NCBI GenBank assembly: GCA_025812035.1
Contig: GCA_025812035.1_4719.1
DNA: 64,000 bases
Strand: one strand, 5' to 3'
Source: a phage
Shown: positions 1,548 to 16,527 of the stretch, one piece after another
Layout: each line of letters starts with the position of its first letter
Position numbering within the stretch: position 1 is the first letter of the stretch
Notes under the pieces: model-generated
What the model was told of the DNA's origin: nothing
The model's database searches: none
Seen by the model: the letters and a program-made list of their open reading frames with translations, nothing else
Translations under genes and position numbers: made by a program

Positions 1548-3959
1548 TTAAGCGTCCTTGGTAGGCAAAGGTTTAACAATCAAACGATTGAGCGTATTCG
1601 ATAAACGCATGCCAATAGGCTTGTACGCAACATGATTCGTTTCACTTAGAACCGCGGATTTGAAACGACCATTCAACTGTTTGTAAATCGGCTCTATCCA
1701 GAGACCCTGAAGATCACGTTTACGGAAACGTTGCTCAAACGGTTTGATTGGGTTTACGGTCAGACCATGCAACGATTCTGATAGCAGACGTTCACGAAGA
1801 TCACGCGGTGCTCTACCTGGGAACGGTGCAAGCCACAACCCGTTGAGCGGGTTTTTACGGAAACGCAACGAGACAGGATCGGTAATAACTTGCGCCCAAT
1901 ATTGCGTACTGAATCGTACGGTTTGAGTATTCTCGTAACCGCTACAATCACACCAGGTTGGTTTTGGAGGCGCTTCCAAACTTTCAACCGCCGATTCACG
2001 CCAGTTCGTCATCGGGTTGTTATCGTGTACGAATTTGATAACTTCCGTAGCCTGGTTATCCGTATCATGAACGCATGCTTGTGCCCAGTCCTCCCACAGT
2101 TCTTCACTACCGCTTACTAAACTCGAACCAAGACGGATGGCAATTTTGTTCAGCGGTTTGATAGGATCGCTGTTGATTGTCTGGATAAAATGGATGGTGT
2201 AACTACTCAATGTCTTGAGCAATTGCAACATTCCGTATTGAATATCCTTAAGGCTGGTGACATCTTCCAAGTCTTGACCGGTGGCCTTTGTGAAGATATC
2301 GAGAGCCAGAATTCCCGCCTCTTCTTGACTGATTGCGTCAAGCTCCCAATCCATCGCTAAGAACCATTCCTTGTAAAGCTGTCCAATACCGAAGTCGACA
2401 CCAACATCCATGTAGAAATTCTCAACGATCGCTTCAGCCATACCTCGAGCTTGATAATGCTCTTGGAGCTGATACATGAATTGATGGCGACGCCAGCCCT
2501 GGTAGATCTCGGTAACGACGTTGAGAAACTCTTCAGTACTGACGACCGGACGCAATGTTACTTGCTTATCTAAACACCACCAGATCAGTTTATCGGGAAT
2601 GATAACAGGATCGGTAATACTGCGGAGATGGTCGAATGTCGGTAACGTTAACACCCGGACATGATTGGCATGTATCTTAGGTACTTCAATCAGCGTCATG
2701 CCCATCGAATAGTTCAGCAAATACAAGAACAGCTTGTAGGCATCTTTCATCGACATCGTCATGGTATCACCCGTCACCGGGTTGGTTGTCGTCAACCGTG
2801 ACTGATACATGCCTATCGCGCTAAGATGGATCCACTCATTCAGCAGGAAATCATACTTAGGATACAATTCACTGTCTGTAAGGTCTTCTGCTTCACTTTC
2901 CAATACCTTGGTCGTTAAGGTATTGTTGTCGTGCATCGACATCTTCTCTATCGTGCGGTTAAGCTCGGTATAATACTCTGCTTCGTTATCCCGCGCTAAA
3001 GGGAACTGTTGCTGCATGACGGTGGTGACCTTACGTCTAACCGTACCGTTGCCGACGATCTCTTGAAGGTTCAGCGGTTTACGCTCCATGTAAACGGTAG
3101 GTTTTAACGTCTGAGGTATCTCGGAAGCGTCTTGTTTGATTGAGAACGCACCGATTGGAATTCCACGATCGGTTAATACCTTTTGAATGAGCTTATCGTA
3201 GTTTTCCGTTCTACCCATGTTTCTTTCAACGTAAGCGATGTTACGATAGAACCAGAGCATCTGGGATTCCGTCATGTATCGCTCGAATCGATCAAGACCC
3301 TGATGGCTTGCCAGATAACTCCAGATATGGAAGCTATGGGCATAATGGGTATGACAGTTTTCCCAACGAATACCTTTTATCATCTCAGGTATTTGTGTGA
3401 ATAGAATGGCGTATAACGCAGGCCAATGAAGCATATCGACGCTTTCATACGCCGGATGTTCCCAACGTCTAAAGTAATCGTCGATTTCCTGCTGTAATCG
3501 CGGGATAAGGTTGGCCTCGCGTGACTCAACCTCTCGTGTATCGTACCAGAGAATCTCATGATTGCGAGCCGCAATTGCTTTCTCGATATCGATGGGGTTA
3601 AGGATACCCAAAATCAACATACGTTGTTCTGGGTACCGCGCAATTAAACGATTGAAATAATCTCCGCCGTACGCGTATTCTCTTGCGGTCATGCGATGCC
3701 GTAGCATGTTTTCCTTGGTGAACTCGATCTCCTCGAGCGTATCCAGGGAATTTACGGTCATCATTGTCTGACAAGGATGATACTCGCCAGCGAGATTCAT
3801 GTAGTATAACCACGTGCGTGGGTCGTCCCCGACGGCCATCTGGTAGACTTCGGAAACCTTGAGGTTTAACCGTTCTGCCGTGATGTCACTTTTAATAATC
3901 AGGGTGTCCGTTAGACGCTGCACGCTTTCCGAATAAAGCTGATAGTCAGTGTTGGACAC
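1548..3959 (-). CDS. hypothetical large protein (~803 aa; track ORF extends to 4028 with a TTG)
   Basis: ORF track 1548..4028; first start with a good SD is the in-frame GTG at 3957-3959 (GGAGGA 6 nt upstream); C-terminal tandem peptide repeat RFRKNPLNGLWLAPF / RFRKRDLQGLWIEPI; no Walker A seen, so not called terminase. Confidence 0.5.
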   Translation of the reverse strand: MSNTDYQLYSESVQRLTDTLIIKSDITAERLNLKVSEVYQMAVGDDPRTWLYYMNLAGEYHPCQTMMTVNSLDTLEEIEFTKENMLRHRMTAREYAYGGDYFNRLIARYPEQRMLILGILNPIDIEKAIAARNHEILWYDTREVESREANLIPRLQQEIDDYFRRWEHPAYESVDMLHWPALYAILFTQIPEMIKGIRWENCHTHYAHSFHIWSYLASHQGLDRFERYMTESQMLWFYRNIAYVERNMGRTENYDKLIQKVLTDRGIPIGAFSIKQDASEIPQTLKPTVYMERKPLNLQEIVGNGTVRRKVTTVMQQQFPLARDNEAEYYTELNRTIEKMSMHDNNTLTTKVLESEAEDLTDSELYPKYDFLLNEWIHLSAIGMYQSRLTTTNPVTGDTMTMSMKDAYKLFLYLLNYSMGMTLIEVPKIHANHVRVLTLPTFDHLRSITDPVIIPDKLIWWCLDKQVTLRPVVSTEEFLNVVTEIYQGWRRHQFMYQLQEHYQARGMAEAIVENFYMDVGVDFGIGQLYKEWFLAMDWELDAISQEEAGILALDIFTKATGQDLEDVTSLKDIQYGMLQLLKTLSSYTIHFIQTINSDPIKPLNKIAIRLGSSLVSGSEELWEDWAQACVHDTDNQATEVIKFVHDNNPMTNWRESAVESLEAPPKPTWCDCSGYENTQTVRFSTQYWAQVITDPVSLRFRKNPLNGLWLAPFPGRAPRDLRERLLSESLHGLTVNPIKPFEQRFRKRDLQGLWIEPIYKQLNGRFKSAVLSETNHVAYKPIGMRLSNTLNRLIVKPLPTKDA

Positions 3960-3986
3960 GATCGGTCCTCCAAGGAGCCAGTGTAA
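3960..3986. promoter_or_regulatory. 27-bp divergent intergenic region with back-to-back Shine-Dalgarno sequences
   Basis: GGTCCTCCAAGGAGCC reads AAGGAG on plus (for 3987 ATG) and GGAGGA on minus (for 3959 GTG). Confidence 0.4.
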
Positions 3987-6893
3987 ATGAACGATATAAA
4001 TAAAGGGCGCGTCGCCCTCGAACGTCAAATGAGCAATAATGACGTTGCGAAGGCACTCATGAACAAATTTGTCGCTCCTGCCCCGCAGTCACGTCTTTAT
4101 AATACACGTGAGGCGGAAGGAGGGAACGGTCGTTTCGGGTTAGTTGTTCCCGACCAGATGACGATGAACACGGTTACGCGTGCGACAGCGACAAACATCG
4201 AGGATAATAAAAACATTCTCGAGTTGTTCCCTGAACTTAAACGCGTGATGCAGATCTATGTTGCCGCGTTGACGAACCCTAACGATCTTAAGACGGTCGA
4301 GATGTTTATCGATAGCGAAGATTTCCCCGGCAGAGTCGCAGAAATCGTTCAGCCGATGATCGATACCATCGACACGCATTTTAAGAATATCTATAAAATA
4401 AAGACGCTTATCCCTCGTATCATCGAAGACGTCTTCTTTATCAAGGGTAGTTATAACTTCGTTGTTCTGCCCGAAAGTACGCTCGATCGTGCTATTAACG
4501 GTAACGGCCAACTGAAACTTGAAGAATACGGATTCAGAGATAACCATTTTGCAAGTTGGGGGCTTTTAGGTAACGATAGTCGCAAGCGTCAAGAAAACCA
4601 ACTGCCCGCGACGGTTTCGATGGAAGATTATTTCTCAGGCGTTAACGAAACCTTATCGTACGATCCGGTTGTTCGTATAGACAGCATTAAGTTTACCAAT
4701 ACCCTGCTTCGTGATAAGGATGGTAAATTCATTGAAGCGAAGATCGATATTCCGGATATGGTTACGGTTGTCGATAACCCGGATATCCTCCGCATGCCCA
4801 TTTTGCATCAGCGTCGAGCAGCGACAGCGGTGCAACGTGCGTTACGTGCAAACACATTAGGAGGTAGTGGTCTGGTAACGCTGTCTGGTGATCCGACTCA
4901 AACCGCAAACCGGCGTGAGCTGACGCAAGAACAGGTTAACGAGATCTGGAATAAACTCAACATCCAGCGTCATACCAAGGTATCTCCCGTTTACGCGTTG
5001 GCAACCCCAGATACGCTTGACCGTCAAAGCGTTGGTCACCCCGGCGTGATGCATGTACCGCCTGAGGCATTAGAACCAGTACATGCGCCAGGTGATCCGG
5101 AGAACCATATCGGGTATTTAGTTCAGTTGGATGAGTTTGGTTATCCGGTGCGTTTGGTTGAAGATGCGGCGTATTACAAGCAGTTGGAAGGTCGGTTGTC
5201 GAAGATCACCGCGGATATCGCAGGTACTTCAAGCAATGGCATGGCGAGCGAGATGATTGGTGCGGCCAAGAACATGGTCCAAGGTACGTCATGTAATCAG
5301 GTAGACATGTCGGCCTTCGTATCATCGTACGAATCACTGATGCAACGCTACATCGTTGAACGTATTGTCAACGGTTATCTAGGTAGTGCAGTGGAGATCG
5401 GTGCGACATCATCGTTTTACCTATCGATGCTTGCTCGTAGTCTCGCCCACAAGCAGACTCGTGTTTTGTTTATTCCTCGAGAGATGGTTACATACATCGC
5501 TTATGAATACAACAAATACGGTATCGGCCGTTCGTTGCTTGAAAGCACGAAGATGATCTCGTCACAACGCGCCATGCTCATGGTTCAGGAACTGATGGCG
5601 AAAATCAAGAGTTCGTTGAACTACACAACGCTAAGTGTAATGCTTGAAGACACCGACAGAAACCCGGTCGATACCGTCGAACAAGCGTTACATAGCTTCG
5701 CTCGTGTTTACCAGTCTGGTTTCCCACTGGGTGAAACTAACCCAATGGATATCATCAATGCGTACGAACGAAGCTCGATTCGATTGAAGGTCGAGGGGAA
5801 TAACCCACGTTTCCCGAAATTGAATACCGATGTTAGCGTCGAGCAGCGTAACTATCAGTCCCCTGATAATGAATTGATGGATCGTTACCGTCGTGACCAT
5901 TTCATGGGTCTGGGTGTTTCTCCAGAGATCGTTGATACTTCTTACCAATCTGAATTCGCAGCTTCTGTGATTACAGCTAACGCGATGCAAGAGAAACAGT
6001 TCACGGTTTGTCGTGAGGTTATCGTGAATGGGTTAACCGATCACATCAAGAAGTACACGGCTTACAGTCCTGTACTGCTGACGTCGCTGCGAAACACGGT
6101 TCGTGCGAACATGTCTAAGCTCTCCCAAGCACAATTGAAGCAGCTTTTTGGTAGCGATTTCGAAAACGGTGTCATTCGTAACGTTAACGCTTACCAGGAG
6201 ATCGATGACCAGTCAGCAACGATGGATCTGGATTACTCTAAACCAGAAGTTCAGGAAGTTATTGCCGATGCTTACGTATCCATGTTCTTAAACAGTCTGC
6301 AGGTACGTTTACCGGATAGCAATGCTCGCCGCCTTGAAGATCAGGTGCGGGAATATAATCAGTACAAGGAAGCGATTACCGCACAACTTGATGATTATTT
6401 AACGCCTGATTACGTTATGGGTCTGGGTGGAGTCGATGAAACAACATTGCAGATGATTCGTGCGTGCATTATCGGTACTGCAATGCGTACTTGGGCAAAA
6501 GAGAACAACTTCAATCAGGAGTTAGCGGATCTCTTCAGTCTCGATGATAAGAAGAATGCCGTGCAAGATTGGAAACGTGCATCCATGGAACATATCGAAA
6601 TCATGGGTAAATGCATGGGTGATTTTGCACTGTATATTCAGAATCTGACGAAGAAGATTGAAGAGAAGATGGGAGATCAAGCGCAGGACGGTAGCGTTTC
6701 ATCTGATGGCTCTTGGTCGTCTGATTCAAGTAGCGATACAGGTTCTTCTGATGACTTCGGTGGTGATGATTTCGGGGATACCGATTTCGATACCGAAACG
6801 GTGGAGGAAACCTCAACAGAGGAGACAACTACGTCTGAGGATACGACTACCGACACAACGTCGGAAGACGAGACTTCAGGTGATATTGTCTAA
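3987..6893 (+). CDS. hypothetical large protein (968 aa) with acidic Ser/Thr/Asp/Glu-rich C-terminal tail
   Basis: ORF track; AAGGAG SD 9 nt upstream of ATG; last ~75 residues are low-complexity (SSDGSWSSDSSSDTGSSDDFGGDDFGDTDFDTETVEETSTEETTTSEDTTTDTTSEDETSGD). Confidence 0.65.
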   Translation: MNDINKGRVALERQMSNNDVAKALMNKFVAPAPQSRLYNTREAEGGNGRFGLVVPDQMTMNTVTRATATNIEDNKNILELFPELKRVMQIYVAALTNPNDLKTVEMFIDSEDFPGRVAEIVQPMIDTIDTHFKNIYKIKTLIPRIIEDVFFIKGSYNFVVLPESTLDRAINGNGQLKLEEYGFRDNHFASWGLLGNDSRKRQENQLPATVSMEDYFSGVNETLSYDPVVRIDSIKFTNTLLRDKDGKFIEAKIDIPDMVTVVDNPDILRMPILHQRRAATAVQRALRANTLGGSGLVTLSGDPTQTANRRELTQEQVNEIWNKLNIQRHTKVSPVYALATPDTLDRQSVGHPGVMHVPPEALEPVHAPGDPENHIGYLVQLDEFGYPVRLVEDAAYYKQLEGRLSKITADIAGTSSNGMASEMIGAAKNMVQGTSCNQVDMSAFVSSYESLMQRYIVERIVNGYLGSAVEIGATSSFYLSMLARSLAHKQTRVLFIPREMVTYIAYEYNKYGIGRSLLESTKMISSQRAMLMVQELMAKIKSSLNYTTLSVMLEDTDRNPVDTVEQALHSFARVYQSGFPLGETNPMDIINAYERSSIRLKVEGNNPRFPKLNTDVSVEQRNYQSPDNELMDRYRRDHFMGLGVSPEIVDTSYQSEFAASVITANAMQEKQFTVCREVIVNGLTDHIKKYTAYSPVLLTSLRNTVRANMSKLSQAQLKQLFGSDFENGVIRNVNAYQEIDDQSATMDLDYSKPEVQEVIADAYVSMFLNSLQVRLPDSNARRLEDQVREYNQYKEAITAQLDDYLTPDYVMGLGGVDETTLQMIRACIIGTAMRTWAKENNFNQELADLFSLDDKKNAVQDWKRASMEHIEIMGKCMGDFALYIQNLTKKIEEKMGDQAQDGSVSSDGSWSSDSSSDTGSSDDFGGDDFGDTDFDTETVEETSTEETTTSEDTTTDTTSEDETSGDIV

Positions 6894-7313: not shown

Positions 7314-9857
7314 TTACTGCTCTTCACGTTCCAACAGATACTCGGAAGCGGTAATACCATTTACCGTACGTACTGCTTTCAGACGAGTATCATCGTTCAG
7401 AATCACGGTAACAGACTGTAGACCTTTTACTTTGGTCTCGAAGGTCTTGAACACCTGATCCAGCATACGAGCAATGCTTGGGTTGGTTGCAGCTGACGCG
7501 TGAGTGTAACCGCTCTGGTTCAGATTCAGAATCTTGGCATTGGTCGGTACGCGAACAACAACATGCGGACGCATAGCGAACACGCTGTGATTGAACCAGT
7601 AAGCATCGTTGCTGTCTTCGTCAGTGACGATGTCTGGATTAACACGCATATCCTCAACAGCCGCATCAGCCAAACGACGTTCGATTTCGTCAGCGTCCAG
7701 AGAGCCATCTTTCTCCAGTTCTGCACGATACTCACTCATGGCAACCAAATGACGTTCACGATTCACCGTAGATTTTTCGTGAGCGACTTTCAGGTAGTCA
7801 TGCATGTTGTACAGTTCTGCCATAGACAGACGAATGTTCCACTGACCATCACCGTCACGGTTGCAGTAGAGACACTTCAGCATGTTGACCCAGGTATGGT
7901 AGCAATTGGAGAACTCATCTTCAATAAACTTCTGATCCATTTTAAGATCGTGAATCAGCCAGCCGGACAGTTCTCCGATATCATCAACGAAGCTAGAGAT
8001 GGTGGTTTCAGAGAAGTCCTTCGGTACGATACGTTTGATCAACTTGTTGACGTCTTTGGTCATGCTATCGTTCAGGAAATGCCAAATACGCAGAGGAATG
8101 ACATCTCGATACTGTTGCATGATCTGACGATAAGCCGCAATATCGTCGCTACGACCTTTATCAATAGACAACGCATCCAGGAATTCATGGATAGCATCCA
8201 GCTCTTTGTCGGTATAAGTTCCCAGATAGGAATTGACCGTGGCAAGGAATGCTAATGCGTCGTTTTGGTTGACGTCGGTGTTGGTCTGCTGGATGATCGC
8301 CACAGCAGCTTTGGTTTCAGCATCCTCAACGCTCGATGCTGCGATCGCATCGGTAACGGTAAACAGTTTCATTTCGCGTTGTTCGCCGACAACGATTGGT
8401 TCACGTTGAACCGGTTTGTTGAGGCTAACGCGGACAACCTCCGATTGCGCGATGCGGTCCAGTTTTATCATTTCCTGCTCTGCCATACGACGAGCGGTTG
8501 GATCTGATTCAAGTTCGATGTATTCCACTTCTTCCTCCGTGAGGGATGTAATGTCAACAATGGTTTCATGAAGAATTCCGTTTTCGTCGATACGTGCTCG
8601 ACGAGCGAAGTGCCTGAAGTCATACAACGTTGGCCAGCGACAATTAGGTGCGTAGTCTTTGGCCTTCAGACGCATCTGCATAAATTCTTCATGTTGAACA
8701 ACACGACCGTAACGCTTAGCATCTTCGGTCGCATCAATGGGATTAACGGTCTTTGTTGCCGTAGCGGAACGAACCGTACGGATGGGTTCCGGTTTAGTCT
8801 GCACAGGTTCAGGTTGAACAGGTTTCTGCTGTCCAGACTTAACATGCCATTCGGGTTCTTCGTACCGTTCAGCGAACTGTTCGGCTGCTGCAAAGATATC
8901 GTTGATACCACCGACGTCTCCTTCGGGATTCGTCGAGTAGATACGTGGTTGTGGTGCCTCGTAACGCGGCGCTGTGGTAGCAGGTGCATCATCAACGATA
9001 GGATCATCACCAACATCATACAAACGGTTGAACGCACAATCCTTCGAATCAATGTACGATGGAGCTTGTGGTTGAACAACCGTCGGTCGAGGTTGTGCGC
9101 CGTATCCTGGCATCGTTGGAGCCATACCACGCATAACCGCTGGACTCGGTTGGTATTGCGGTTGCGGATAGGTTCCATATGCAGGTTGCTGCGGTTGACC
9201 GTACCCGGTGCTGGCCATCGCATTTGCTTGTGGTCCGCGATACGTCATTCCCATCTGCATCACCTGTTGCTTCAAACCACGCGATTTTTGCGCGATTTGC
9301 GCCAGGCTCCCGTTTTTATTGAGCTGTGTATACTTATTCGCGGCTTCCGGGTTAACGCGTGATAACTCAATCGCACGATAATACTCCGGGTATTGATTAG
9401 GTTCAAAGAGCCACGTTACAAGATGATACAGCGCAACCGTGCTCACGGCAGCAGTGACGATCTGGTCGGTGGACGCATTCTGCGGCATCGGGTTGATGTA
9501 AGAGAATACGTTCCAGCAGCAATCTTCAACAAGCGATTCCATCATCATATCGCTATTGGTATAACGCGCGACGAAATCGGTTTGTATCTTATCTTGCTGT
9601 GCGAAGTCTTTCAAGACGTTAAAGATAGCCTGACGGATTTTGACGATCGTTGCTTCTTGGGTGATGAAGTTATAGTTCTGCTGATACGCCGGTTGCTGGT
9701 ATTGTGGTGGTTGATAGGTGTTATTCGGGTATGGGTTGTACGGCGGTTGCTGGTATTGTTGCTGACGTACCTGCTCCGCGGCATAATTAATCGTGCTCGC
9801 ATAAGGGTTTTCGCTATAGCCCATTTGCTGGTACATGTTGTTACTACCATTATACAT
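7314..9857 (-). CDS. hypothetical protein (847 aa) with Gln/Tyr/Pro/Asn-rich low-complexity regions
   Basis: ORF track; AAAGGAT SD; N-terminal ~70 aa (MYNGSNNMYQQMGYSENPY...QQQYQQPPYNPYPNNTYQPPQYQQPAYQQNYNF) and internal GYGQPQQPAYGTYPQPQYQPSP segment. Confidence 0.65.
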   Translation of the reverse strand: MYNGSNNMYQQMGYSENPYASTINYAAEQVRQQQYQQPPYNPYPNNTYQPPQYQQPAYQQNYNFITQEATIVKIRQAIFNVLKDFAQQDKIQTDFVARYTNSDMMMESLVEDCCWNVFSYINPMPQNASTDQIVTAAVSTVALYHLVTWLFEPNQYPEYYRAIELSRVNPEAANKYTQLNKNGSLAQIAQKSRGLKQQVMQMGMTYRGPQANAMASTGYGQPQQPAYGTYPQPQYQPSPAVMRGMAPTMPGYGAQPRPTVVQPQAPSYIDSKDCAFNRLYDVGDDPIVDDAPATTAPRYEAPQPRIYSTNPEGDVGGINDIFAAAEQFAERYEEPEWHVKSGQQKPVQPEPVQTKPEPIRTVRSATATKTVNPIDATEDAKRYGRVVQHEEFMQMRLKAKDYAPNCRWPTLYDFRHFARRARIDENGILHETIVDITSLTEEEVEYIELESDPTARRMAEQEMIKLDRIAQSEVVRVSLNKPVQREPIVVGEQREMKLFTVTDAIAASSVEDAETKAAVAIIQQTNTDVNQNDALAFLATVNSYLGTYTDKELDAIHEFLDALSIDKGRSDDIAAYRQIMQQYRDVIPLRIWHFLNDSMTKDVNKLIKRIVPKDFSETTISSFVDDIGELSGWLIHDLKMDQKFIEDEFSNCYHTWVNMLKCLYCNRDGDGQWNIRLSMAELYNMHDYLKVAHEKSTVNRERHLVAMSEYRAELEKDGSLDADEIERRLADAAVEDMRVNPDIVTDEDSNDAYWFNHSVFAMRPHVVVRVPTNAKILNLNQSGYTHASAATNPSIARMLDQVFKTFETKVKGLQSVTVILNDDTRLKAVRTVNGITASEYLLEREEQ

Positions 9858-9891
9858 TTCTTACGATCCTTTTTATTTATTCGGTTATGTG

Positions 9892-11688
9892 TCAATCGAT
9901 TATGTCACGATCGTTAATTTCTACAATTTCTTCATCGAATCGACCGACGTCTTTCTTCAAGCCTGCATTTGTTGCTGCAACGTCATTTGCAATTTGTGGG
10001 GTAACGATTAACCGACCACGCTCGTCGATAGGTGCGTACATACTGAACTTCTGACGTCCGGTTGGTTCGGAGTGTGGAAGATTCAGATAGCTCGCACAGA
10101 ACGGGATGGAACCACTAACCAAACGACTCTCGTCAGCCAACGCAGCACCGCCTGCGTTTTGGCTCTGGAGAACAACATGCGTGCTCACTTTGAACAGCAT
10201 GCAATCACCCGGTGACTGAATCGATGTTGCCACTTTCTCACGCTTATCACGATTGCTCTGGATATTGAGAATCGCTTCTGTTGCAACTTGATTTCGCAAC
10301 GCCTTCTGTACATCGCGATTGGTCATCTCTTTACGGTTGTTCTGTCGTTTACCACGTTCTGTGGTTTTAAGATGGAACCCCAGTTTAAAGATGCTCTTAC
10401 GCACATCCTCCATGACATATTCCAACACCATCAATTCCTTACCGAACATCGTCGTGGTATCAACACGACTCATTTCGATAGTAACATTGTCAATCAGATA
10501 CGCCATAAATTCGTAGAAGTCATCGCAAGGAATATTTTCCTGTTTGAACTTCTTCTGCTGAATTTCGTCGACGTAAAGATCAAGGCTATCGATGTGGTGG
10601 TTTACATCACGCAACAAACGCGCATCCGCGTTGTTGTTATTAAAGATAATCAAACCGAGTAATGTACGCCAATGGTCTGGCGCATTAGCGAACTCTTCAA
10701 CCGGATAGTCTTCCGGAAAACGATCGTAATAGCGGTCGATGAGATACAAGAACGCACCGACAAGGCCAAGAACAATACGTTCCGTGCCTCCACGTCTTAC
10801 AGCAATTTGAATATCAGGATGTTTATAACGTACAGCGTTAGCGCTACGGCTTTTACCGCTCTTACTAATACTAAAGCCTTTAGGAATAACCCCCATGGTG
10901 CGATAGATTACCCATTGGTCGCGCGGAAAATCGCGTTCAGCAAGATTCCGTCCGGTTACCGCTTCGACACCCGCGAAACGTCGGAAACATTCACCTACCC
11001 CGTACTTCGCAAAGAGATAGTGACCCAATGTGGTTACACTGGTGTGGTTGATGTTGTCACCGTTCACTTTACTTTGTTTGGTAAGATGATAGATTTGCGA
11101 CCAGGGTAACGATAGATAGTGACGATAATCGACACCGGTTGGAGTATCATTACTCAGGAACTGATACGGCGTACGTTTAACTGTGATTTTGTCACGCGGA
11201 AGCATGATGAACGCCATGTCTTTCGTGTAACTGATTACAGGGTCAGCGAGTACCGCACTGAGAATAAAGTTTGCACCACGTAGACGCATTTTACCACCCT
11301 GCCCTACTGCGGGTAATAGGAGAGGGTGTCGGATAATGCAGTAGTCCTTTCCTGGTTCACGACGGTCACCTGATTCCATCGCGCCATACCAGCGGAATTC
11401 TAACATCACCATAAACACATCGGACGGCGCAAGGTCAAAGGTCAGCTTACCGCTATCCTTCCCTTTGGTTTTCTTTCCTCCGCTTAAGTAGTGAAACTGT
11501 TCGCGGGCCACACAACGACGTAGGCCATGATACACCAGATCCTTAGGTAAACTATCTTTGCTGTTCCGCCAAAGACGATCAACATAGGACTCAACATCTT
11601 GCATCTTATCGACGACGATGTTGCGCGCTATCTTCTCGTTCATCTTCGGTGCAAGCCCAGCGACAGCTTTGCAGAATCTAGGATCCAT
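9892..11688 (-). CDS. hypothetical protein (~598 aa)
   Basis: ORF track 9892..11691; ATG at 11686-11688 preceded by AAAGGAG SD; no polymerase or terminase motifs recognised. Confidence 0.6.
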   Translation of the reverse strand: MDPRFCKAVAGLAPKMNEKIARNIVVDKMQDVESYVDRLWRNSKDSLPKDLVYHGLRRCVAREQFHYLSGGKKTKGKDSGKLTFDLAPSDVFMVMLEFRWYGAMESGDRREPGKDYCIIRHPLLLPAVGQGGKMRLRGANFILSAVLADPVISYTKDMAFIMLPRDKITVKRTPYQFLSNDTPTGVDYRHYLSLPWSQIYHLTKQSKVNGDNINHTSVTTLGHYLFAKYGVGECFRRFAGVEAVTGRNLAERDFPRDQWVIYRTMGVIPKGFSISKSGKSRSANAVRYKHPDIQIAVRRGGTERIVLGLVGAFLYLIDRYYDRFPEDYPVEEFANAPDHWRTLLGLIIFNNNNADARLLRDVNHHIDSLDLYVDEIQQKKFKQENIPCDDFYEFMAYLIDNVTIEMSRVDTTTMFGKELMVLEYVMEDVRKSIFKLGFHLKTTERGKRQNNRKEMTNRDVQKALRNQVATEAILNIQSNRDKREKVATSIQSPGDCMLFKVSTHVVLQSQNAGGAALADESRLVSGSIPFCASYLNLPHSEPTGRQKFSMYAPIDERGRLIVTPQIANDVAATNAGLKKDVGRFDEEIVEINDRDIID

Positions 11689-11727
11689 CACACACTCCTT
11701 TCAGAAAGTTGCTTAAGCAGATTAAAG

Positions 11728-13197
11728 TTACTTTTTCGATGAAGCTTTCTCAAGAATCTTGAAAAAGGTCATACCTATACCAACAACGGCCGCGGTTATA
11801 CTCGCAGCGGCTTTCCAGACATCGACGTTACGTTGACGTCGCGCTTCTTCCGCTTCGCGTTGTCTTTTTGCTTCATCATCACGACGGCGTAGCTCAGTTG
11901 TGAATTCATCGTGCTTACGTTTCGCGTCCTCGTCTCGGCGACGCATTTCAGCGATAAGCTCATCATGCTTACGTTTTGCCTCTTCATCACGACGTTTAAG
12001 TTCAGCTTGATGTTCTTCTCGTATTTGTTTACGAAGATCATCTTGACGTTTCATTTCGGCTTGGTGGTGTTCCATCCTACGTTCAGTATCGTCTTTAAGC
12101 TGTTTAACAATTTCCGCATGTTGCTTATTTTGTCGTTCCGCATCGGTTTTATACAATTCGTGTAATTGCTTTATTTCCGATGCGTGAGCGTCAGCCTGTC
12201 GTTTCATTTCGTTGGTATGATCGACCTGCAGTTGCTTTATTTCAGCCATCAGCCCTTTAAGGGTTTCTTCTGTTGACTTACGTTCATAGCTACGTTGGTC
12301 GAAATCATTTTTGTAGGCTTCTTTTTGGATGGGGTCGCGCCAATGCAATGCCGATTCACGTGTCGGAAAAACATTGTACTTCCACATCTCTTTTTCCAAA
12401 TCTTCGACCGGTACGAAGACGGAGTCATTATTCCCGAAGGTAACCAACATACCTGGCGCGCCTGCTCCATTCGTTGGTTTTATTTCGAACGCTTTTCCCA
12501 GAACGTTAACCCATAAGCTATACGGATTATGAAAGTCTGGTGGCGTCCAATGGATAGTGAGTTGCGTTCCGAGAATCCGGAAACCCTCTGTTTTTCCCGT
12601 CAAGCTTCGCGCACACGTTGCGATGTAGGGGTGATCAATCCCTTTCGTAACGTGGTCTGCGCTTTTGTATTCTCCTTTAACTTTTACGACTGCCACGTTG
12701 ATTTGCGCGACATAAATAGGTTGATTAAAGTTCAACGTGTTGAGGTCAATTTGGCATACTTCATCCAGCGTATCGTACCAGTCTTGCTGGTCTAATAGAC
12801 GCGGTATTTTCTCCGTGTTAACGATGCGACGGATATGCGGTTTCCTTATCGCGTAACCTGTGCCGTTTTTAACACGAAGTATATCCCGACGTCTACCCGC
12901 GTAGACGAAGTTTCTGAATGCACCATTCGCATTAGATACGTCATGGCTGTCAACTATTACAGGACTACGAAATTTTGAACGCCTTACGATCCTGAATGTA
13001 TTGCCGTCCTCAACCCTACCAGGAATGTACTGGAACATATTGTCGGAGGTGATAACCAACACGGTATGGTTGGATTCATTAATACACGCCCATCCTAATT
13101 CCAGGTCATATAACGGTTCAGCATAACCGTCAATGCGATATGCGTGCGTACCATCCCACGGTTCGAACGCGGTATCACATATTGGCATGGAGGGCAT
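11728..13197 (-). CDS. hypothetical protein with C-terminal charged coiled-coil repeats and C-terminal transmembrane anchor
   Basis: ORF track 11728..13203 (TTG); ATG at 13195-13197 with GGAGG SD; C-terminal ~150 aa are K/R/E/D-rich heptad-like repeats (ELKRRDEEAKRKHDE / RRRDEDAKRKHDE / RRRDDEAKRQRE) followed by hydrophobic AAASITAAVVGIGMTFFKIL and KK end. Confidence 0.6.
   Translation of the reverse strand: MPSMPICDTAFEPWDGTHAYRIDGYAEPLYDLELGWACINESNHTVLVITSDNMFQYIPGRVEDGNTFRIVRRSKFRSPVIVDSHDVSNANGAFRNFVYAGRRRDILRVKNGTGYAIRKPHIRRIVNTEKIPRLLDQQDWYDTLDEVCQIDLNTLNFNQPIYVAQINVAVVKVKGEYKSADHVTKGIDHPYIATCARSLTGKTEGFRILGTQLTIHWTPPDFHNPYSLWVNVLGKAFEIKPTNGAGAPGMLVTFGNNDSVFVPVEDLEKEMWKYNVFPTRESALHWRDPIQKEAYKNDFDQRSYERKSTEETLKGLMAEIKQLQVDHTNEMKRQADAHASEIKQLHELYKTDAERQNKQHAEIVKQLKDDTERRMEHHQAEMKRQDDLRKQIREEHQAELKRRDEEAKRKHDELIAEMRRRDEDAKRKHDEFTTELRRRDDEAKRQREAEEARRQRNVDVWKAAASITAAVVGIGMTFFKILEKASSKK
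11830..12010 (-). repeat. imperfect tandem DNA repeats (~54-63 bp) encoding the charged coiled-coil repeats
   Basis: Plus-strand units such as TCATCGTGCTTACGTTTCGCGTCCTCGTCTCGGCGACG / TCATCATGCTTACGTTTTGCCTCTTCATCACGACG; in-frame within gene 11728..13197. Confidence 0.5.
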
Positions 13198-13346
13198 CGT
13201 CAACCTCCATCAGATTGAAAACTATCACGCATAATGCATTTCCCTTTTCTTGTTCTTATCGAGCCGACAGCCGACGGTTTCAGCATCGTTCCTAGCGCGA
13301 GAACGACCTTACGTGTTGTCTATGCCTTATTCATCGCAGGCGTCTG

Positions 13347-13403
13347 TCACCTAGGTAATGTAAGCGTCAAATTTTTTCTATTTGCAACGATAAACAGCAT
13401 AGA
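13347..13403 (-). promoter_or_regulatory. conserved intergenic element, copy 1 (candidate promoter, partly diverged)
   Basis: Shares TCACCTAGGTAAT(G/A)TA and ACAGCATAGAA ends with the copies at 21507 and 59630; sits between a terminator hairpin and the next minus-strand gene. Confidence 0.35.
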
Positions 13404-13437
13404 AGCCTCCCCCAACCCTTGCGGGCTGAGGGAGGCT
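13404..13437 (-). terminator. hairpin terminator downstream of the capsid-candidate gene
   Basis: Stem AGCCTCCC/GGGAGGCT with inner CCC-TTGC-GGG; on minus strand followed by TTCTATGCTGTTTATCG. Confidence 0.55.
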
Positions 13438-13534
13438 GACTTATGTATCACGGTGCCGGATGAATGTCCGGTGCAATGAAACCATCTGCAACGTTGTCGT
13501 CAAGAATATCATCCAACGAAGCAGCTACGGTAGT

Positions 13535-15757
13535 TCAGTTAGTCTGAACCGGCAGCTTGATGTTTTCAGTGTAGACCTTACGCAGGTTCACGACGTTAAT
13601 CAGACCCAGCAGCGGGCAGTTGTTAACGAAGCGGCAGCGCGGCTGAACCATGGTTTCTTTAGAAACCTGACCGTTACGGGTAACCTGAGCAACAGATACC
13701 AGTTCCGGTACATACAGGAACATACCGAAGGTCAGCGGATCCGGAGAACCCTGGATACCACGAGACAGGGTCACGAAGATCTTATCACGCAGCAGGACGT
13801 TCGGGTTATCTACAACCACGAAGTTGAAGCTTACACCAACGGTACGGAAATCACCATCGGTCTGCAGGAACTGCGGGATGTAGTTGTCGGTTGCTACTAC
13901 GCAACGCGGTTTCTCATCAGCGTTGGAAGACAGCAGCTGCAGAGCTGGCTGATAACCAGACTCAGAGTACATGCGGTATGCCATCTCACGAATCACGTTC
14001 ATGATCGCAGCGGACACTTCAGCACGACGTTCTGCAGTGGTGGTACCCTGAACGGATTTCGCCAGGTCCAGGTTGATTTCTTCGAACCACGGACGGATCA
14101 GGTAACGACCGAAACCTTCGATCTGGATGTCACCGAACTGACGGAAGCGAGAGGTCGCAACTGCTTTCAGTGCGTCTTTGTAGCTGAACAGTTTCTCAAC
14201 CATCAGGTTGTCGAAACGTGCGTTAGCCGCTTGGATCAGAACGTCCAGGTCAGCAGCGTTTTCTTCCCAATCAAGCGGACGAGGAATGGAGAACGGAGCC
14301 AGCAGACCGATTGCGTAACGCTCTTGCTTCATGTTGAAGTCAAGGTGCTTACCACGTTCACGACGGTTGCTGTTGTTACGACGGATACGCAGTTCGTAAC
14401 CAACCAGTTTGAAGCTCAGGTCGTCAGCCAGGTCTTTGAATTCTTGGCTCTTACGCGGCTGTTCGATGTTGTCCTGATCAACCAGGCGATACAGTTCAGC
14501 GTTAGCGCCGTTAACACGCAGACCCGCTTTCTCTACGTTGGAAGAACCGTAAACTTCGATAGCCAGCTGAGCAGCGGATTTCGCATCGATGATGTCCTGC
14601 AGCGCTTCGGCTTTCGCACCTTTAACGTCAACGGTGTTCTCATCAACGAAGATGGAGTGAGTGTCGAACGCCAGGGTCATTTTGCGGAAGTCGCCTTCCA
14701 GAGATTTCTGGAAACCGTTGGTGATCAGACCGGATACGTCGAACGGAACGTAAGAGGTTTTGCTGTGCTTAGCGGATTTGATTTCCACCAGGATTTTGGT
14801 CAGCGTGATCTGAGCATCCAGCGCGTCGGTGTTGTCGCTGTAACCGTTAGCCAGAATGCTATCGTCTTCAGCGATACCGATCATGTCGATCAGTTTATCA
14901 ACAGCCAGGTAAGACGTTTTATAAGTTACGCCTTTAATTTCGATGTCACGCGGAGCAACGATAGCTTTGTCAACGAAGTACTGCGCGTTAGCATCGTCAG
15001 CACGATAGATCGGGTGCAGGTCGGTCACGTCGTTGGACAGAACGTCGTTGTACATGAACGCGTCCAGCAGCGGACGACGTACCCAATCAGCCGGAGTACC
15101 GTCAGCGTTACGACGCAGATGGTTGAATACCAGCGGACGACGGAAAGATACGTCATAACCGATCTGGTTCGGAGCCAGAACGATGGTGTTGTACAGTTCG
15201 TTACCCATGCGGCTCAGACGAGAAGCCTTCACGTTGAACACAACGGAGTACGGCATCATGTCGCGCAGTTCTTTCTGGTCGTAGGACAGCTGAACCAGTT
15301 CTTCAGATTCGCAACCGCAGGAATCAGCAGCCATCATGACGAAGTTAGAGCTGTCAACTTCACGACCTGACGGAGTGGTGCTGATGTTCATGGAACGTGC
15401 TTGTTTAGCGTATTCCACCGGGTTACCATGAGCCAGCATGATCAGTGCTGCTGCACGAGCCTGCTGTGCGTTCATGGTGAACAGCTGTTCTTCAATACGC
15501 TGCTTCTCTTCCGGAGTGGTGGTTTCGAAGCCCAGCATAGACAGAACCGGTTCTTCTGCTTTACGGATGTCGCTGCTGAAGCTCTTAACATCCATATCGT
15601 TAACCAGTTTGTCCATGGATTTGAAATCAACCTTAGAAGCAGATTCCATAGACAGGAAGGTGTTTTCCAGACCTTTGTCTGCTGGTTTGCTACCATTAGC
15701 GGTCAGGAACTGGCGAGTGGCCGCGACCTGCTGGCTAAGAAGGGTTTTATCATTCAT
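13535..15757 (-). CDS. candidate major capsid protein (740 aa); tail sheath not excluded
   Basis: Strongest codon bias in the window (CGT/CTG/ACC/GGT-rich), implying very high expression; length matches the ~740-750 aa major capsid proteins I recall for phiKZ-like phages; AAAGGA SD; acidic N-terminal region with S-x-E motifs; no homology search run. Confidence 0.5.
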   Translation of the reverse strand: MNDKTLLSQQVAATRQFLTANGSKPADKGLENTFLSMESASKVDFKSMDKLVNDMDVKSFSSDIRKAEEPVLSMLGFETTTPEEKQRIEEQLFTMNAQQARAAALIMLAHGNPVEYAKQARSMNISTTPSGREVDSSNFVMMAADSCGCESEELVQLSYDQKELRDMMPYSVVFNVKASRLSRMGNELYNTIVLAPNQIGYDVSFRRPLVFNHLRRNADGTPADWVRRPLLDAFMYNDVLSNDVTDLHPIYRADDANAQYFVDKAIVAPRDIEIKGVTYKTSYLAVDKLIDMIGIAEDDSILANGYSDNTDALDAQITLTKILVEIKSAKHSKTSYVPFDVSGLITNGFQKSLEGDFRKMTLAFDTHSIFVDENTVDVKGAKAEALQDIIDAKSAAQLAIEVYGSSNVEKAGLRVNGANAELYRLVDQDNIEQPRKSQEFKDLADDLSFKLVGYELRIRRNNSNRRERGKHLDFNMKQERYAIGLLAPFSIPRPLDWEENAADLDVLIQAANARFDNLMVEKLFSYKDALKAVATSRFRQFGDIQIEGFGRYLIRPWFEEINLDLAKSVQGTTTAERRAEVSAAIMNVIREMAYRMYSESGYQPALQLLSSNADEKPRCVVATDNYIPQFLQTDGDFRTVGVSFNFVVVDNPNVLLRDKIFVTLSRGIQGSPDPLTFGMFLYVPELVSVAQVTRNGQVSKETMVQPRCRFVNNCPLLGLINVVNLRKVYTENIKLPVQTN

Positions 15758-15906
15758 TGAAAGTATCCTTTACAGAATTAACTTATATAAGTCGGTCGAT
15801 AGACCATAGCGTACACGCGTGCATGCGCCACTATAGTATCAGTAAACACTTACCGTTGTTTAGGCTGTGATACAACACTAAAAATGCCGCATAACTTTTT
15901 CCTACG

Positions 15907-16527
15907 TCACAAACGACGCAGGCGATAATGGATGGAACGATTGGTGCAATATGAACGGAACAGCGGCAATTGCGCAACTTCCGCAAGACTCATATTAATT
16001 CGCAGGTGTTCAATAACGGCGCTGTAGTTATCAGCAATACGATCGCTCAATAACTCTTCTGCCAATAAAGGAAGACAATCGACAACAATCGCGATCATAT
16101 CCTCATTAACATAACGCACCCGAACACTCAACGGACGTTTGTCTGGGCTGTAAGTTGGATCCGCCAAACGACGTTCAATATCACGCGGATAGCTCGTCAG
16201 TAAATGGTAGTAACCATTATCATAACGATTGATGTACTCACACAGCACATCAACATTCTTTTCTGGCGGCAAACCTGTTTCGTCATAGTGATACGCAAAC
16301 ATACCACCAAGCAGGTTGTTAAGATGAACTGCAGGGTTCGCTTGTTCGTGTTCTTTCGTGATGAAGAAAGGCACGTTCTGAGCTGCGAAATAAAAACCTA
16401 CATCATTGGGCGATAGTATGCCGAAAAGACTTTTAGGATCCAACAGCACCTGTAAGTCATCACGCGCATTTCGAATGATTGCGTGTTCTACCCAATTCGG
16501 AACGACGAGATATCGGAGTTCCTTCAT
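15907..16527 (-). CDS. hypothetical protein (206 aa)
   Basis: ORF track; AGAGGT SD 8 nt upstream of ATG; divergent from the helicase gene. Confidence 0.55.
   Translation of the reverse strand: MKELRYLVVPNWVEHAIIRNARDDLQVLLDPKSLFGILSPNDVGFYFAAQNVPFFITKEHEQANPAVHLNNLLGGMFAYHYDETGLPPEKNVDVLCEYINRYDNGYYHLLTSYPRDIERRLADPTYSPDKRPLSVRVRYVNEDMIAIVVDCLPLLAEELLSDRIADNYSAVIEHLRINMSLAEVAQLPLFRSYCTNRSIHYRLRRL

Follow-up and report, generated by a model that had tools for sequence, protein, structure and literature searches.

Core gene cg35 of a Goslar-like jumbo phage: a head, a repeat-built charged helix and a putative C-terminal membrane anchor

Nucleus-forming jumbo phages use two compartments, a lipid vesicle and then a protein shell, and we know of no mechanism that has been identified for the hand-over of the genome to the phage nucleus. 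Which phage proteins could act at this transition is the question raised by a gene on the minus strand of contig GCA_025812035.1_4719.1 (NCBI GenBank assembly GCA_025812035.1, positions 11,728 to 13,197), a stretch of 64,000 nucleotides of phage DNA that is referred to in the following, at its full length, as the window. The source of the window is, by sequence, a Goslar-like E. coli jumbo phage, with 95.5% nucleotide identity to Escherichia phage vB_EcoM_Goslar across the region 9000–16000. A preliminary description, made from the letters of the window, had proposed that the gene encodes a tail-anchored protein with a long charged coiled coil built from tandem repeats.

The gene is the Goslar-group ortholog of the Chimalliviridae core gene cg35 (phiKZ gp122, Goslar gp040), and we hold its identity, together with the architecture of its product, with high confidence. 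The protein has 489 residues and comprises a globular head, one long charged helix and a C-terminal hydrophobic helix. Our reading of its function, to which we assign as a whole a probability of roughly 0.45, is that of an early, essential, non-virion spacer or tether that would be anchored in a membrane and act at the stage between vesicle and nucleus. The gene and the constituent parts of its product are as follows.

11728–13197, minus strand: coding sequence of the 489-residue protein (ATG at 13197, stop codon 11728–11730)
12334–13197, minus strand: N-terminal alpha/beta head, residues 1–288, family-specific and with no known fold relative
11827–12333, minus strand: continuous charged alpha-helical stalk, residues 289–457, from AlphaFold2 and composition
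11731–11826, minus strand: putative C-terminal anchor region, residues 458–489, VDVWK-AAASITAAVVGIGMTFF-KILEKASSKK
11761–11811, minus strand: hydrophobic core of that region, residues 463–479, 17 residues without D, E, K, R, H, N or Q (AAASITAAVVGIGMTFF)

Identity of the gene and conservation of its layout

Position, profile similarity, fold-search matches, a published assignment and the layout of head, helix and tail are all common to the cg35 family and the Goslar-type protein. The published assignment is given in Table S3 of Prichard 2023 (PMC10299810 supplement), which equates cg35 with Goslar gp040, phiKZ gp122 and RAY gp001* on the basis of PSI-BLAST, lists it as 'hypothetical' and stars it as unique to chimallin-encoding phages. 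It belongs to the ~21 core genes unique to nucleus-forming phages, all but one of which encode proteins of unknown function. The gene is a known core gene, early and essential in phiKZ, a fact that the preliminary description had missed. Goslar gp040, annotated as hypothetical, matches the 489-residue protein with an identity of 87.7% (tblastn) to 90% (MAFFT). Comparison with the alignment of the gp122 family by hhalign yields a probability of 95% (E = 3.4e-8, columns 229–288), and a Foldseek search of BFVD yields 29 matches at E <= 1e-3 (best E 8.8e-12). Every named match is an uncharacterised jumbo-phage protein, and those that could be mapped (Eowyn, Noxifer, 201phi2-1 gp202 and RP12) are cg35 orthologs. 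The orthologs belong to the cross-matching PHROGs 15024, 7286 and 7727, all of unknown function; the 489-residue protein itself has no match to the PHROG models at E <= 0.01 and no genuine match in Pfam, PHROGs and NCBIfam. A hit to the NCBIfam model for alpha-xenorhabdolysin scores 15.9 bits, where the cutoff is 125, and is rejected as an artefact of helix composition.

Among the 5.8 billion and the 1.8 billion proteins searched, only Goslar-like proteins and two relatives of ~30% identity, P0014 and P0015, are recovered. Both share the layout of head, charged helix and hydrophobic tail, and the metagenomic contig carrying P0014 has the gene order of the Goslar-type locus. A query widened with divergent orthologs adds only the SPN3US and Erwinia clades, and a search of IMG/VR finds Goslar-like loci only. 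The succession of the major capsid gene, cg35 and the gene for a beta-type subunit of the non-virion RNA polymerase (nvRNAP), all on the same strand, is found in 12 other phages or contigs. The longer order helicase(-), gp119-like gene, capsid gene, cg35, nvRNAP beta and the gene at the position of phiKZ gp124 is present in Goslar, phiKZ, 201phi2-1, Noxifer and Xoo-sp14, and also in SPN3US, PCH45, Eowyn, RP31, RsoM3USA, a Vibrio phage, Moabite and a metagenome contig. Positional orthologs are accordingly phiKZ gp122, 201phi2-1 gp202 and SPN3US gp76 as well as the counterparts in Noxifer, Xoo-sp14, PCH45, Eowyn, RP31, RsoM3USA, the Vibrio phage and Moabite. The three-part layout that had been read from the window (head, long charged helix, C-terminal hydrophobic helix) is present there and is kept, together with the position flanked by the capsid and nvRNAP beta genes, in 20 positional orthologs. 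As these stem from very divergent chimalliviruses, the layout is strongly argued to be functional.

The head has an ordinary globular composition, with conserved positions N40, P28, G175, W229, F277 and W286. A sequence search of the PDB with the phiKZ ortholog and the head-domain profile gives no match, and Foldseek finds nothing in the PDB (best E = 0.68). In two AlphaFold2 runs, based on alignments of 8 and 10 sequences, the predicted local confidence (pLDDT) of the head is ~52; therefore no fold-based function could be inferred.

Several records need care when the family is compiled. The name 'gp122' in other papers refers to unrelated genes of phiPA3 or SPN3US and not to cg35. Proteins P0026–P0028 of the Salmonella phages SPFM8, SPFM9 and SPFM12 look as if segments of SPN3US gp76 had been permuted or scrambled, and have motifs of the tail close to their N-terminus, which suggests assembly or annotation artefacts in the SPFM records. 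P0006, P0010, P0012, P0013 and P0016 are Goslar-like sequences in public assemblies labelled Salmonella enterica or E. coli O157, on contigs of up to ~244 kb and in some cases with cg35 called from an internal Met; their occurrence suggests carrier-state phage or contamination.

The stalk and its variation in length

The stalk (residues 289–457) is 51% charged with 1% Pro+Gly and would be ~25 nm long if fully helical; residues 301–457 comprise 41 K/R, 40 D/E, no Pro and one Gly. An AlphaFold2 model of the monomer has one unbroken helix from residue 289 to 486, with a pLDDT of 73–89 (means over 10-residue blocks) across ~311–440. A disordered linker, the outcome that the preliminary description had considered contrary to its proposal, is rejected on the basis of this predicted helix and the near-absence of Pro and Gly. 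The following elements are distinguished within the stalk.

12145–12243, minus strand: three 11-residue repeats, residues 319–351, EIKQLQVDHTN / EMKRQADAHAS / EIKQLHELYKT
11845–12060, minus strand: four 18-residue (54-nt) repeats, residues 380–451, of the form AE[LM][KR]R[RQ]D..AKRKHDE..., the ER/K-type zone
12007–12243, minus strand: divergence hot spot, residues 319–397, 67% nucleotide identity to Goslar

Self-comparison of residues 301–460 gives a sharp peak at a lag of 18 (30% identity against a background of 3–13%) and a second one at 36. The four clean 18-mers are preceded by a degenerate unit, and one of the three 11-residue units is missing in Goslar. At the level of the protein the repeats are thus real, as had been proposed. 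The accompanying claim of imperfect DNA repeats at ~11830–12010 holds as to their rough place, the signal in the DNA being weak: four copies at 54-nt spacing (11876–12072) are 60–77% identical to a reference copy, and Tandem Repeats Finder reports no array in the DNA of the window, even at a score of 30, because the DNA repeats are too diverged.

The proposed coiled coil does not hold in its canonical form. Power at a period of 3.5 residues is 0.44 (shuffle P = 0.65), compared to 30.9 for a tropomyosin sequence, and the best hydrophobic period within residues 305–457 is 3.63 (power 7.2; shuffle P = 0.005 at 3.6). A heptad coiled coil is therefore rejected. Of the 60 residues next to the anchor (398–457), 67% are charged and only 10% are strongly hydrophobic; they contain no Pro or Gly and form 50 favourable versus 5 unfavourable charge pairs at i+3/i+4, where shuffled sequences have means of 25.5 and 24.3; the observed excess is reached by none of 5000 shuffles (P < 2e-4). 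This charge patterning is the signature of an ER/K single alpha-helix (SAH), the monomeric helix itself being a prediction. SAH domains serve as rigid spacers of defined length. Residues 398–457 are comparable to those of myosin VI/X lever extensions and caldesmon in their content of E, D, K and R and in a roughly tenfold excess of favourable charge pairs. The distal half of the stalk (residues 305–397) differs from SAH domains: it is only 43% charged, with 29 versus 7 charge pairs (P = 0.0002), and carries a narrow 3.6-periodic apolar stripe interspersed with recurrent histidines, such that it is only partly ER/K-like. We know of no phage protein in which an SAH domain is joined to a membrane anchor.

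The apolar stripe with its histidines therefore keeps a straight, non-heptad oligomer (18/5, 11/3) in contention, that is, a dimeric or trimeric membrane-anchored stalk whose nearly straight helices would form a true, non-canonical coiled coil. Repeats of 11 and 18 residues are classic non-heptad units of coiled coils. The stripe runs continuously with a period of 3.63 through residues 305–457, ~65% of its seam positions (read by eye) are A, I, L, M, F or Y, and helices could pack against each other through a small-xxx-small pattern in the tail. However, a heptad signal is absent, the seam positions within the sparsely hydrophobic 18-mer zone include Asp, Arg and His, and the extreme i/i+4 salt-bridge patterning within the helix is what ER/K single helices typically show. 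We consider an oligomeric stalk unlikely, the strongest of the alternatives nonetheless.

Histidines recur along the stripe (H326, H338, H346, H360, H377/378, H396, H411 and H429), and those of the KRKHDE motif are invariant among relatives. They may confer a pH or metal dependence on helix packing.

Close relatives of the protein are 460, 478, 489 and 507 residues long. They differ by a single 11-mer, a single 18-residue block and one additional 18-mer (AEIKRRNDLHEQTQRDHY), and relative P0001 has five 18-mer units. As the insertions and deletions of 11, 18 and 18 residues match the repeats, whole repeat units were gained or lost, which bears out the earlier suggestion that repeat number is a source of length variation. 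With the geometry of an alpha-helix (100 degrees and 0.15 nm per residue), an insertion or deletion of 11 or 18 residues is computed to change the length by 1.65 or 2.7 nm and to rotate the head by 20 or 0 degrees, respectively. Computed as helices, the stalks of the Goslar group span ~21–28 nm; those of other clades are estimated at roughly 8–13 nm from ~50–85 helical residues. The stalk of the Goslar group is by a wide margin the longest one examined (140–187 helical residues versus roughly 50–110 in the rest of cg35, a sequence-based estimate), and the group differs from the other members also by its own 18- and 11-residue repeats.

Compared to Goslar, the segments of the gene have diverged as follows.

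Head, residues 1–318: 97% nucleotide identity; codon changes 19 synonymous, 8 non-synonymous
Distal stalk, residues 319–397: 67% nucleotide identity; 10 synonymous, 30 non-synonymous
18-mers, residues 398–457: 82% nucleotide identity; 17 synonymous, 11 non-synonymous
Tail, residues 458–489: 95% nucleotide identity; 5 synonymous, 0 non-synonymous

Within the Goslar group the stalk types are only 44–57% identical to each other and the adjoining tail is invariant. The relatives P0001–P0011 combine two head types with three stalk types; P0002, for example, has head type B together with the stalk of the window. Head and stalk types are hence reassorted among relatives, which argues for recombination within the gene rather than simple drift. 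The clade of SPN3US, PCH45 and the Erwinia phages has an 11-residue repeat of its own, RKDxYDERxxx, in 2 to ~5 copies directly before the anchor (seen in loci L006, 6531–7535, and L007, 8983–9918, and in proteins P0023 and P0025), and shares the juxta-anchor motif RKDxS[DE]x[FW]K.[IV]P. Given these independent repeats, stalk-length variation by tandem repeats arose more than once in the family.

The C-terminal helix and the proposed role

The residues K462 and K480 bracket the hydrophobic core of the tail, and the chain terminates in KK. The Kyte-Doolittle maximum of the whole protein (19-residue window) lies at residues 464–482 and reaches 1.76, above the usual threshold of 1.6; the top eight windows are all located in the tail, and the Kyte-Doolittle and Eisenberg (21-residue) maxima both fall within residues 463–483 of 489. 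There is a single hydrophobic segment, at the C-terminus, with neither a signal peptide nor a second such segment elsewhere, which corresponds to the layout of a tail-anchored protein. No amino acid of the tail is changed relative to Goslar. All 20 orthologs have an equivalent tail, and in 17 of them the protein-wide hydrophobic maximum is within the last 19–29 residues. These 17 clearly hydrophobic tails have 13–20 residues without D, E, K, R, H, N or Q, usually bracketed by Lys or Arg, and several orthologs terminate exactly at the hydrophobic stretch. The tail of the Vibrio ortholog is clearly like a transmembrane helix (20 uncharged residues, Eisenberg 0.73, Hessa -1.5). The tail is probably a membrane-anchoring helix, which would either span the bilayer or lie in plane within the cytoplasmic leaflet.

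Data on timing and requirement stem from the phiKZ ortholog. Read counts of gp122 mRNA over time in controls are 3405, 4255, 2580, 2200 and 945 (PMC12571901 source data); the mRNA persists when chmA is silenced, rising from 2895 to 5927, and its profile matches the nvRNAP genes 074 and 123 and is opposite to that of the late capsid gene (PMC12571901). Antisense knockdown of gp122 is scored '+' for plaques/colony-forming units and for ChmA. Seven of the knockdowns, those of gp122 and gp124 included, had 'strong effects on phage transcription' at 30 min. Transposon insertions are absent from the 1083 bp of gp122 and from all genes of gp120-124, gp121 included (PMC12676376 Table S2). A role as virion protein is rejected: the record of 201phi2-1 gp202 has no mass-spectrometry note, which its neighbours gp198 and gp200 have, and gp40 is unmentioned in the main text of the paper on cryo-EM and proteomics of the Goslar virion. 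Two genes downstream of gp122, phiKZ gp124 encodes JADA, which is early, essential, abundant and 'invariantly' placed after the nvRNAP gene (PMC12931631). JADA is cytosolic before infection, is then concentrated at the early infection (EPI) vesicles, and is the trigger of the Avs5 defence system (PMC12931631). According to a review, phage factors that act on the membrane of the EPI vesicle are still unidentified (PMC12908238).

The reading that we put forward combines these observations. The cg35 protein would consist of a cytoplasmic head of ~288 residues, one long stiff charged helix (residues 289–457) with ER/K single-helix character near the anchor and the narrow apolar stripe further out, and a C-terminal helix that would be inserted post-translationally, either as a bilayer-spanning tail anchor or lying in the cytoplasmic leaflet. 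The anchor would reside in the EPI vesicle and/or the inner membrane, and the helix would keep the head ~21–28 nm off this membrane in the Goslar group and roughly 8–13 nm in clades with shorter stalks. The head would bind another phage product on which the passage from the vesicle stage to transcription in the nucleus depends; possible candidates are nvRNAP beta and the JADA-like protein described below, both encoded in its own operon, as well as components of the nascent shell. Gain or loss of whole units would then change the reach by 1.65 or 2.7 nm and barely turn the head (20 or 0 degrees). As for the parts of this proposal, we lean towards a lipid anchor for the C-terminal helix and regard a role of the protein at the EPI vesicle as tentative and on balance somewhat doubtful.

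A number of points weigh against the proposal. The Eisenberg mean of the tail (0.57) lies between the values for a candidate (0.42) and a confident (0.68) transmembrane helix, and the position-independent Hessa sum is positive (+1.35 kcal/mol for 17 and +2.8 kcal/mol for 19 residues); for the transmembrane helix of the preliminary description, the three scales thus give a mixed result. The flank KILEKASSKK has four Lys, unfavourable for crossing an energised inner membrane. The tails of phiKZ, 201phi2-1 and Moabite are amphipathic with Asp or Lys inside, so that the functional data for phiKZ come from an ortholog with the least membrane-like anchor. The knockdown and transposon phenotypes are possibly polar on the essential genes gp123 and gp124 just downstream; the authors of the antisense study report cistron-specific effects. 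Early expression of the Goslar-type gene is an extrapolation from phiKZ, and the low pLDDT of the head lends no support to a particular partner. The marginal scales, basic flanks and amphipathic orthologs together therefore leave room for a monotopic in-plane anchor or a helix that docks onto protein.

In the latter case the C-terminal helix would insert into a protein, for example a hydrophobic groove of the chimallin (ChmA) lattice or another assembly, and the stalk would be attached to the shell. The marginal hydrophobicity fits this alternative, as do the amphipathic tails of the three phages just named (Asp, Ser and Lys on one face) and a small/polar stripe along one face of the Goslar tail (K462, S466, A470, G473, T477, K480, K484 and K488). 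The gp122 knockdown, moreover, reduces the ChmA signal and nucleus-dependent transcription. ChmA protomers are joined to each other by terminal segments that bind neighbouring protomers, in line with such docking. Against it, most orthologs end in 16–20 uncharged residues between basic ones, the signature of a lipid anchor, of which the Vibrio ortholog is a clear case, and apart from their hydrophobic character the tails vary widely between clades, which fits lipid better than a specific groove. We judge docking onto the shell to be rather improbable.

The protein could also act late, as a platform on the inner membrane for the assembly of procapsids. Partly assembled capsids of these phages have been observed on the inner membrane (review PMC12908238), and cg35 adjoins the capsid gene and a gp119-like head gene in every genome examined. 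However, the phiKZ ortholog is early, with a virion RNA polymerase (vRNAP)-type profile opposite to that of the capsid gene, a terminator-like hairpin (annotated in Moabite) lies between the two genes, and knockdown changes both transcription and the amount of ChmA, effects unexpected for a pure head-assembly factor; this alternative is very unlikely. Lysis proteins (class III-like holins, antiholins or spanin-like proteins) likewise join a single transmembrane segment to helical domains. A lysis protein is the least plausible candidate, since the likeness to the 'class IIIb' holin phiKZ gp142 (N-in, with a large cytoplasmic domain and one transmembrane helix near the C-terminus) is offset by the phiKZ lysis cassette gp141-144, which is late and complete without gp122, by the early expression of cg35 from the nvRNAP operon and its long charged helix, by the absence of any match to a Pfam or PHROG lysis family, and by its status as a core gene unique to nucleus-forming phages.

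The membrane-anchored spacer that we favour has its closest analogues in the golgins (giantin, golgin-84 and CASP) and, more broadly, in tail-anchored proteins that are inserted post-translationally. Golgins likewise have a cytoplasmic functional end, a long rod-like helical spacer and a single hydrophobic helix at the C-terminus, followed by only a very short stretch on the luminal side, and their function is set by reach from the membrane, as proposed here for cg35. They differ in that there is no relation in sequence or evolution and in that they are heptad coiled-coil dimers of hundreds of nm, versus a non-heptad, ER/K-like stalk of ~25 nm; the cg35 anchor is also less hydrophobic than golgin-type tail anchors. 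To our knowledge, bacteria have no GET/TRC40 insertion pathway. JADA (phiKZ gp124, Pa36 gp316) resembles cg35 in that it is encoded in the early operon, is essential and restricted to chimalliviruses, and that its knockdown strongly disturbs transcription; it differs in being soluble, as a dimer whose linker is disordered, in lacking a hydrophobic tail, and in being unrelated to cg35 in sequence. That the two proteins are physically linked is a hypothesis.

A more specific form of the proposal is that cg35 encodes a receptor on the cytoplasmic face of the EPI vesicle, whose stalk sets the gap between lipid vesicle and nascent shell during hand-over of the genome. The protein would be made from the first transcripts, its C-terminal helix would enter the vesicle membrane, and its head would capture the JADA-like protein and newly synthesised nvRNAP, the earliest chimallin subunits, or both. 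We regard this as speculative and quite unlikely in its full form. If it were true, we would know of no earlier example of a tail-anchored, golgin-like tether from a bacterial virus, nor of a phage protein that organises the transition from vesicle to nucleus. The conserved layout of a C-terminally anchored stalk would give the uncharacterised cg35 a concrete role in cell biology that is cheap to test, and the early operon shared with an nvRNAP subunit and JADA makes it a candidate for how soluble early proteins reach the vesicle. The natural series of lengths (460, 478, 489 and 507 residues) is a ready-made 'molecular ruler', and the Goslar-type protein is the best family member for testing because E. 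coli is tractable. A search of the literature (Goslar gp40; tail-anchored or transmembrane proteins of chimalliviruses) found no description of the cg35 anchor or stalk.

Genomic surroundings

The neighbourhood of cg35 in the window consists of the following elements.

13535–15757, minus strand: upstream gene, phiKZ-type major capsid protein (PF25620, E = 1.5e-217)
13404–13437, minus strand: GC-rich hairpin (AGCCTCCC ... GGGAGGCT) followed by a T-rich run, read in the sequence
13204–13208, minus strand: Shine-Dalgarno motif GGAGG, 6 nt 5' of the ATG at 13197, read directly in the sequence
9892–11691, minus strand: downstream gene, nvRNAP beta-type subunit, counterpart of phiKZ gp123 (phrog_2943 'polymerase', E = 1.2e-119)
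7314–9857, minus strand: next gene downstream of nvRNAP beta, an 847-residue protein at the position of phiKZ gp124 (JADA), assigned by position

The start of cg35 at the ATG at 13197 agrees with the annotation of the same gene in Goslar, whereas the program-made list of open reading frames begins two codons upstream, at a TTG. The hairpin is located ~100 nt past the stop of the major capsid gene, within an intergenic gap of 337 nt. It is absent from the list of a simple terminator scan, and the Moabite record carries an annotated terminator at the equivalent place. The hairpin is likely a terminator between the late capsid gene and the early unit of cg35 and nvRNAP, in which case cg35 would open a new transcription unit.

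The 847-residue protein has a low-complexity N-terminus rich in Q, N, Y and P as well as a second, Q/P-rich linker at residues ~200–330, and phiKZ gp124 has a Q/P/G-rich linker that resembles the latter. BLASTP against phiKZ gp124 gives E = 0.23 and does not show sequence homology, and a search of the PDB, including the solved structure of JADA, gives no match. The protein is a positional and architectural counterpart of JADA only.

Antisense to nearly the entire major capsid gene, the plus strand contains an open reading frame of 636 codons (13460–15370), most likely a shadow frame with no coding role. In Pseudomonas and Vibrio chimalliviruses, an extra small open reading frame is located between the capsid gene and cg35, which is present neither in the window nor in Goslar. 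In phiKZ it is gp121 (locus L003, 6952–7404), and further instances are found in loci L005 (6905–7423), L014 (6211–6657) and L015 (5777–6136). In phiKZ and 201phi2-1 it overlaps the start of cg35.

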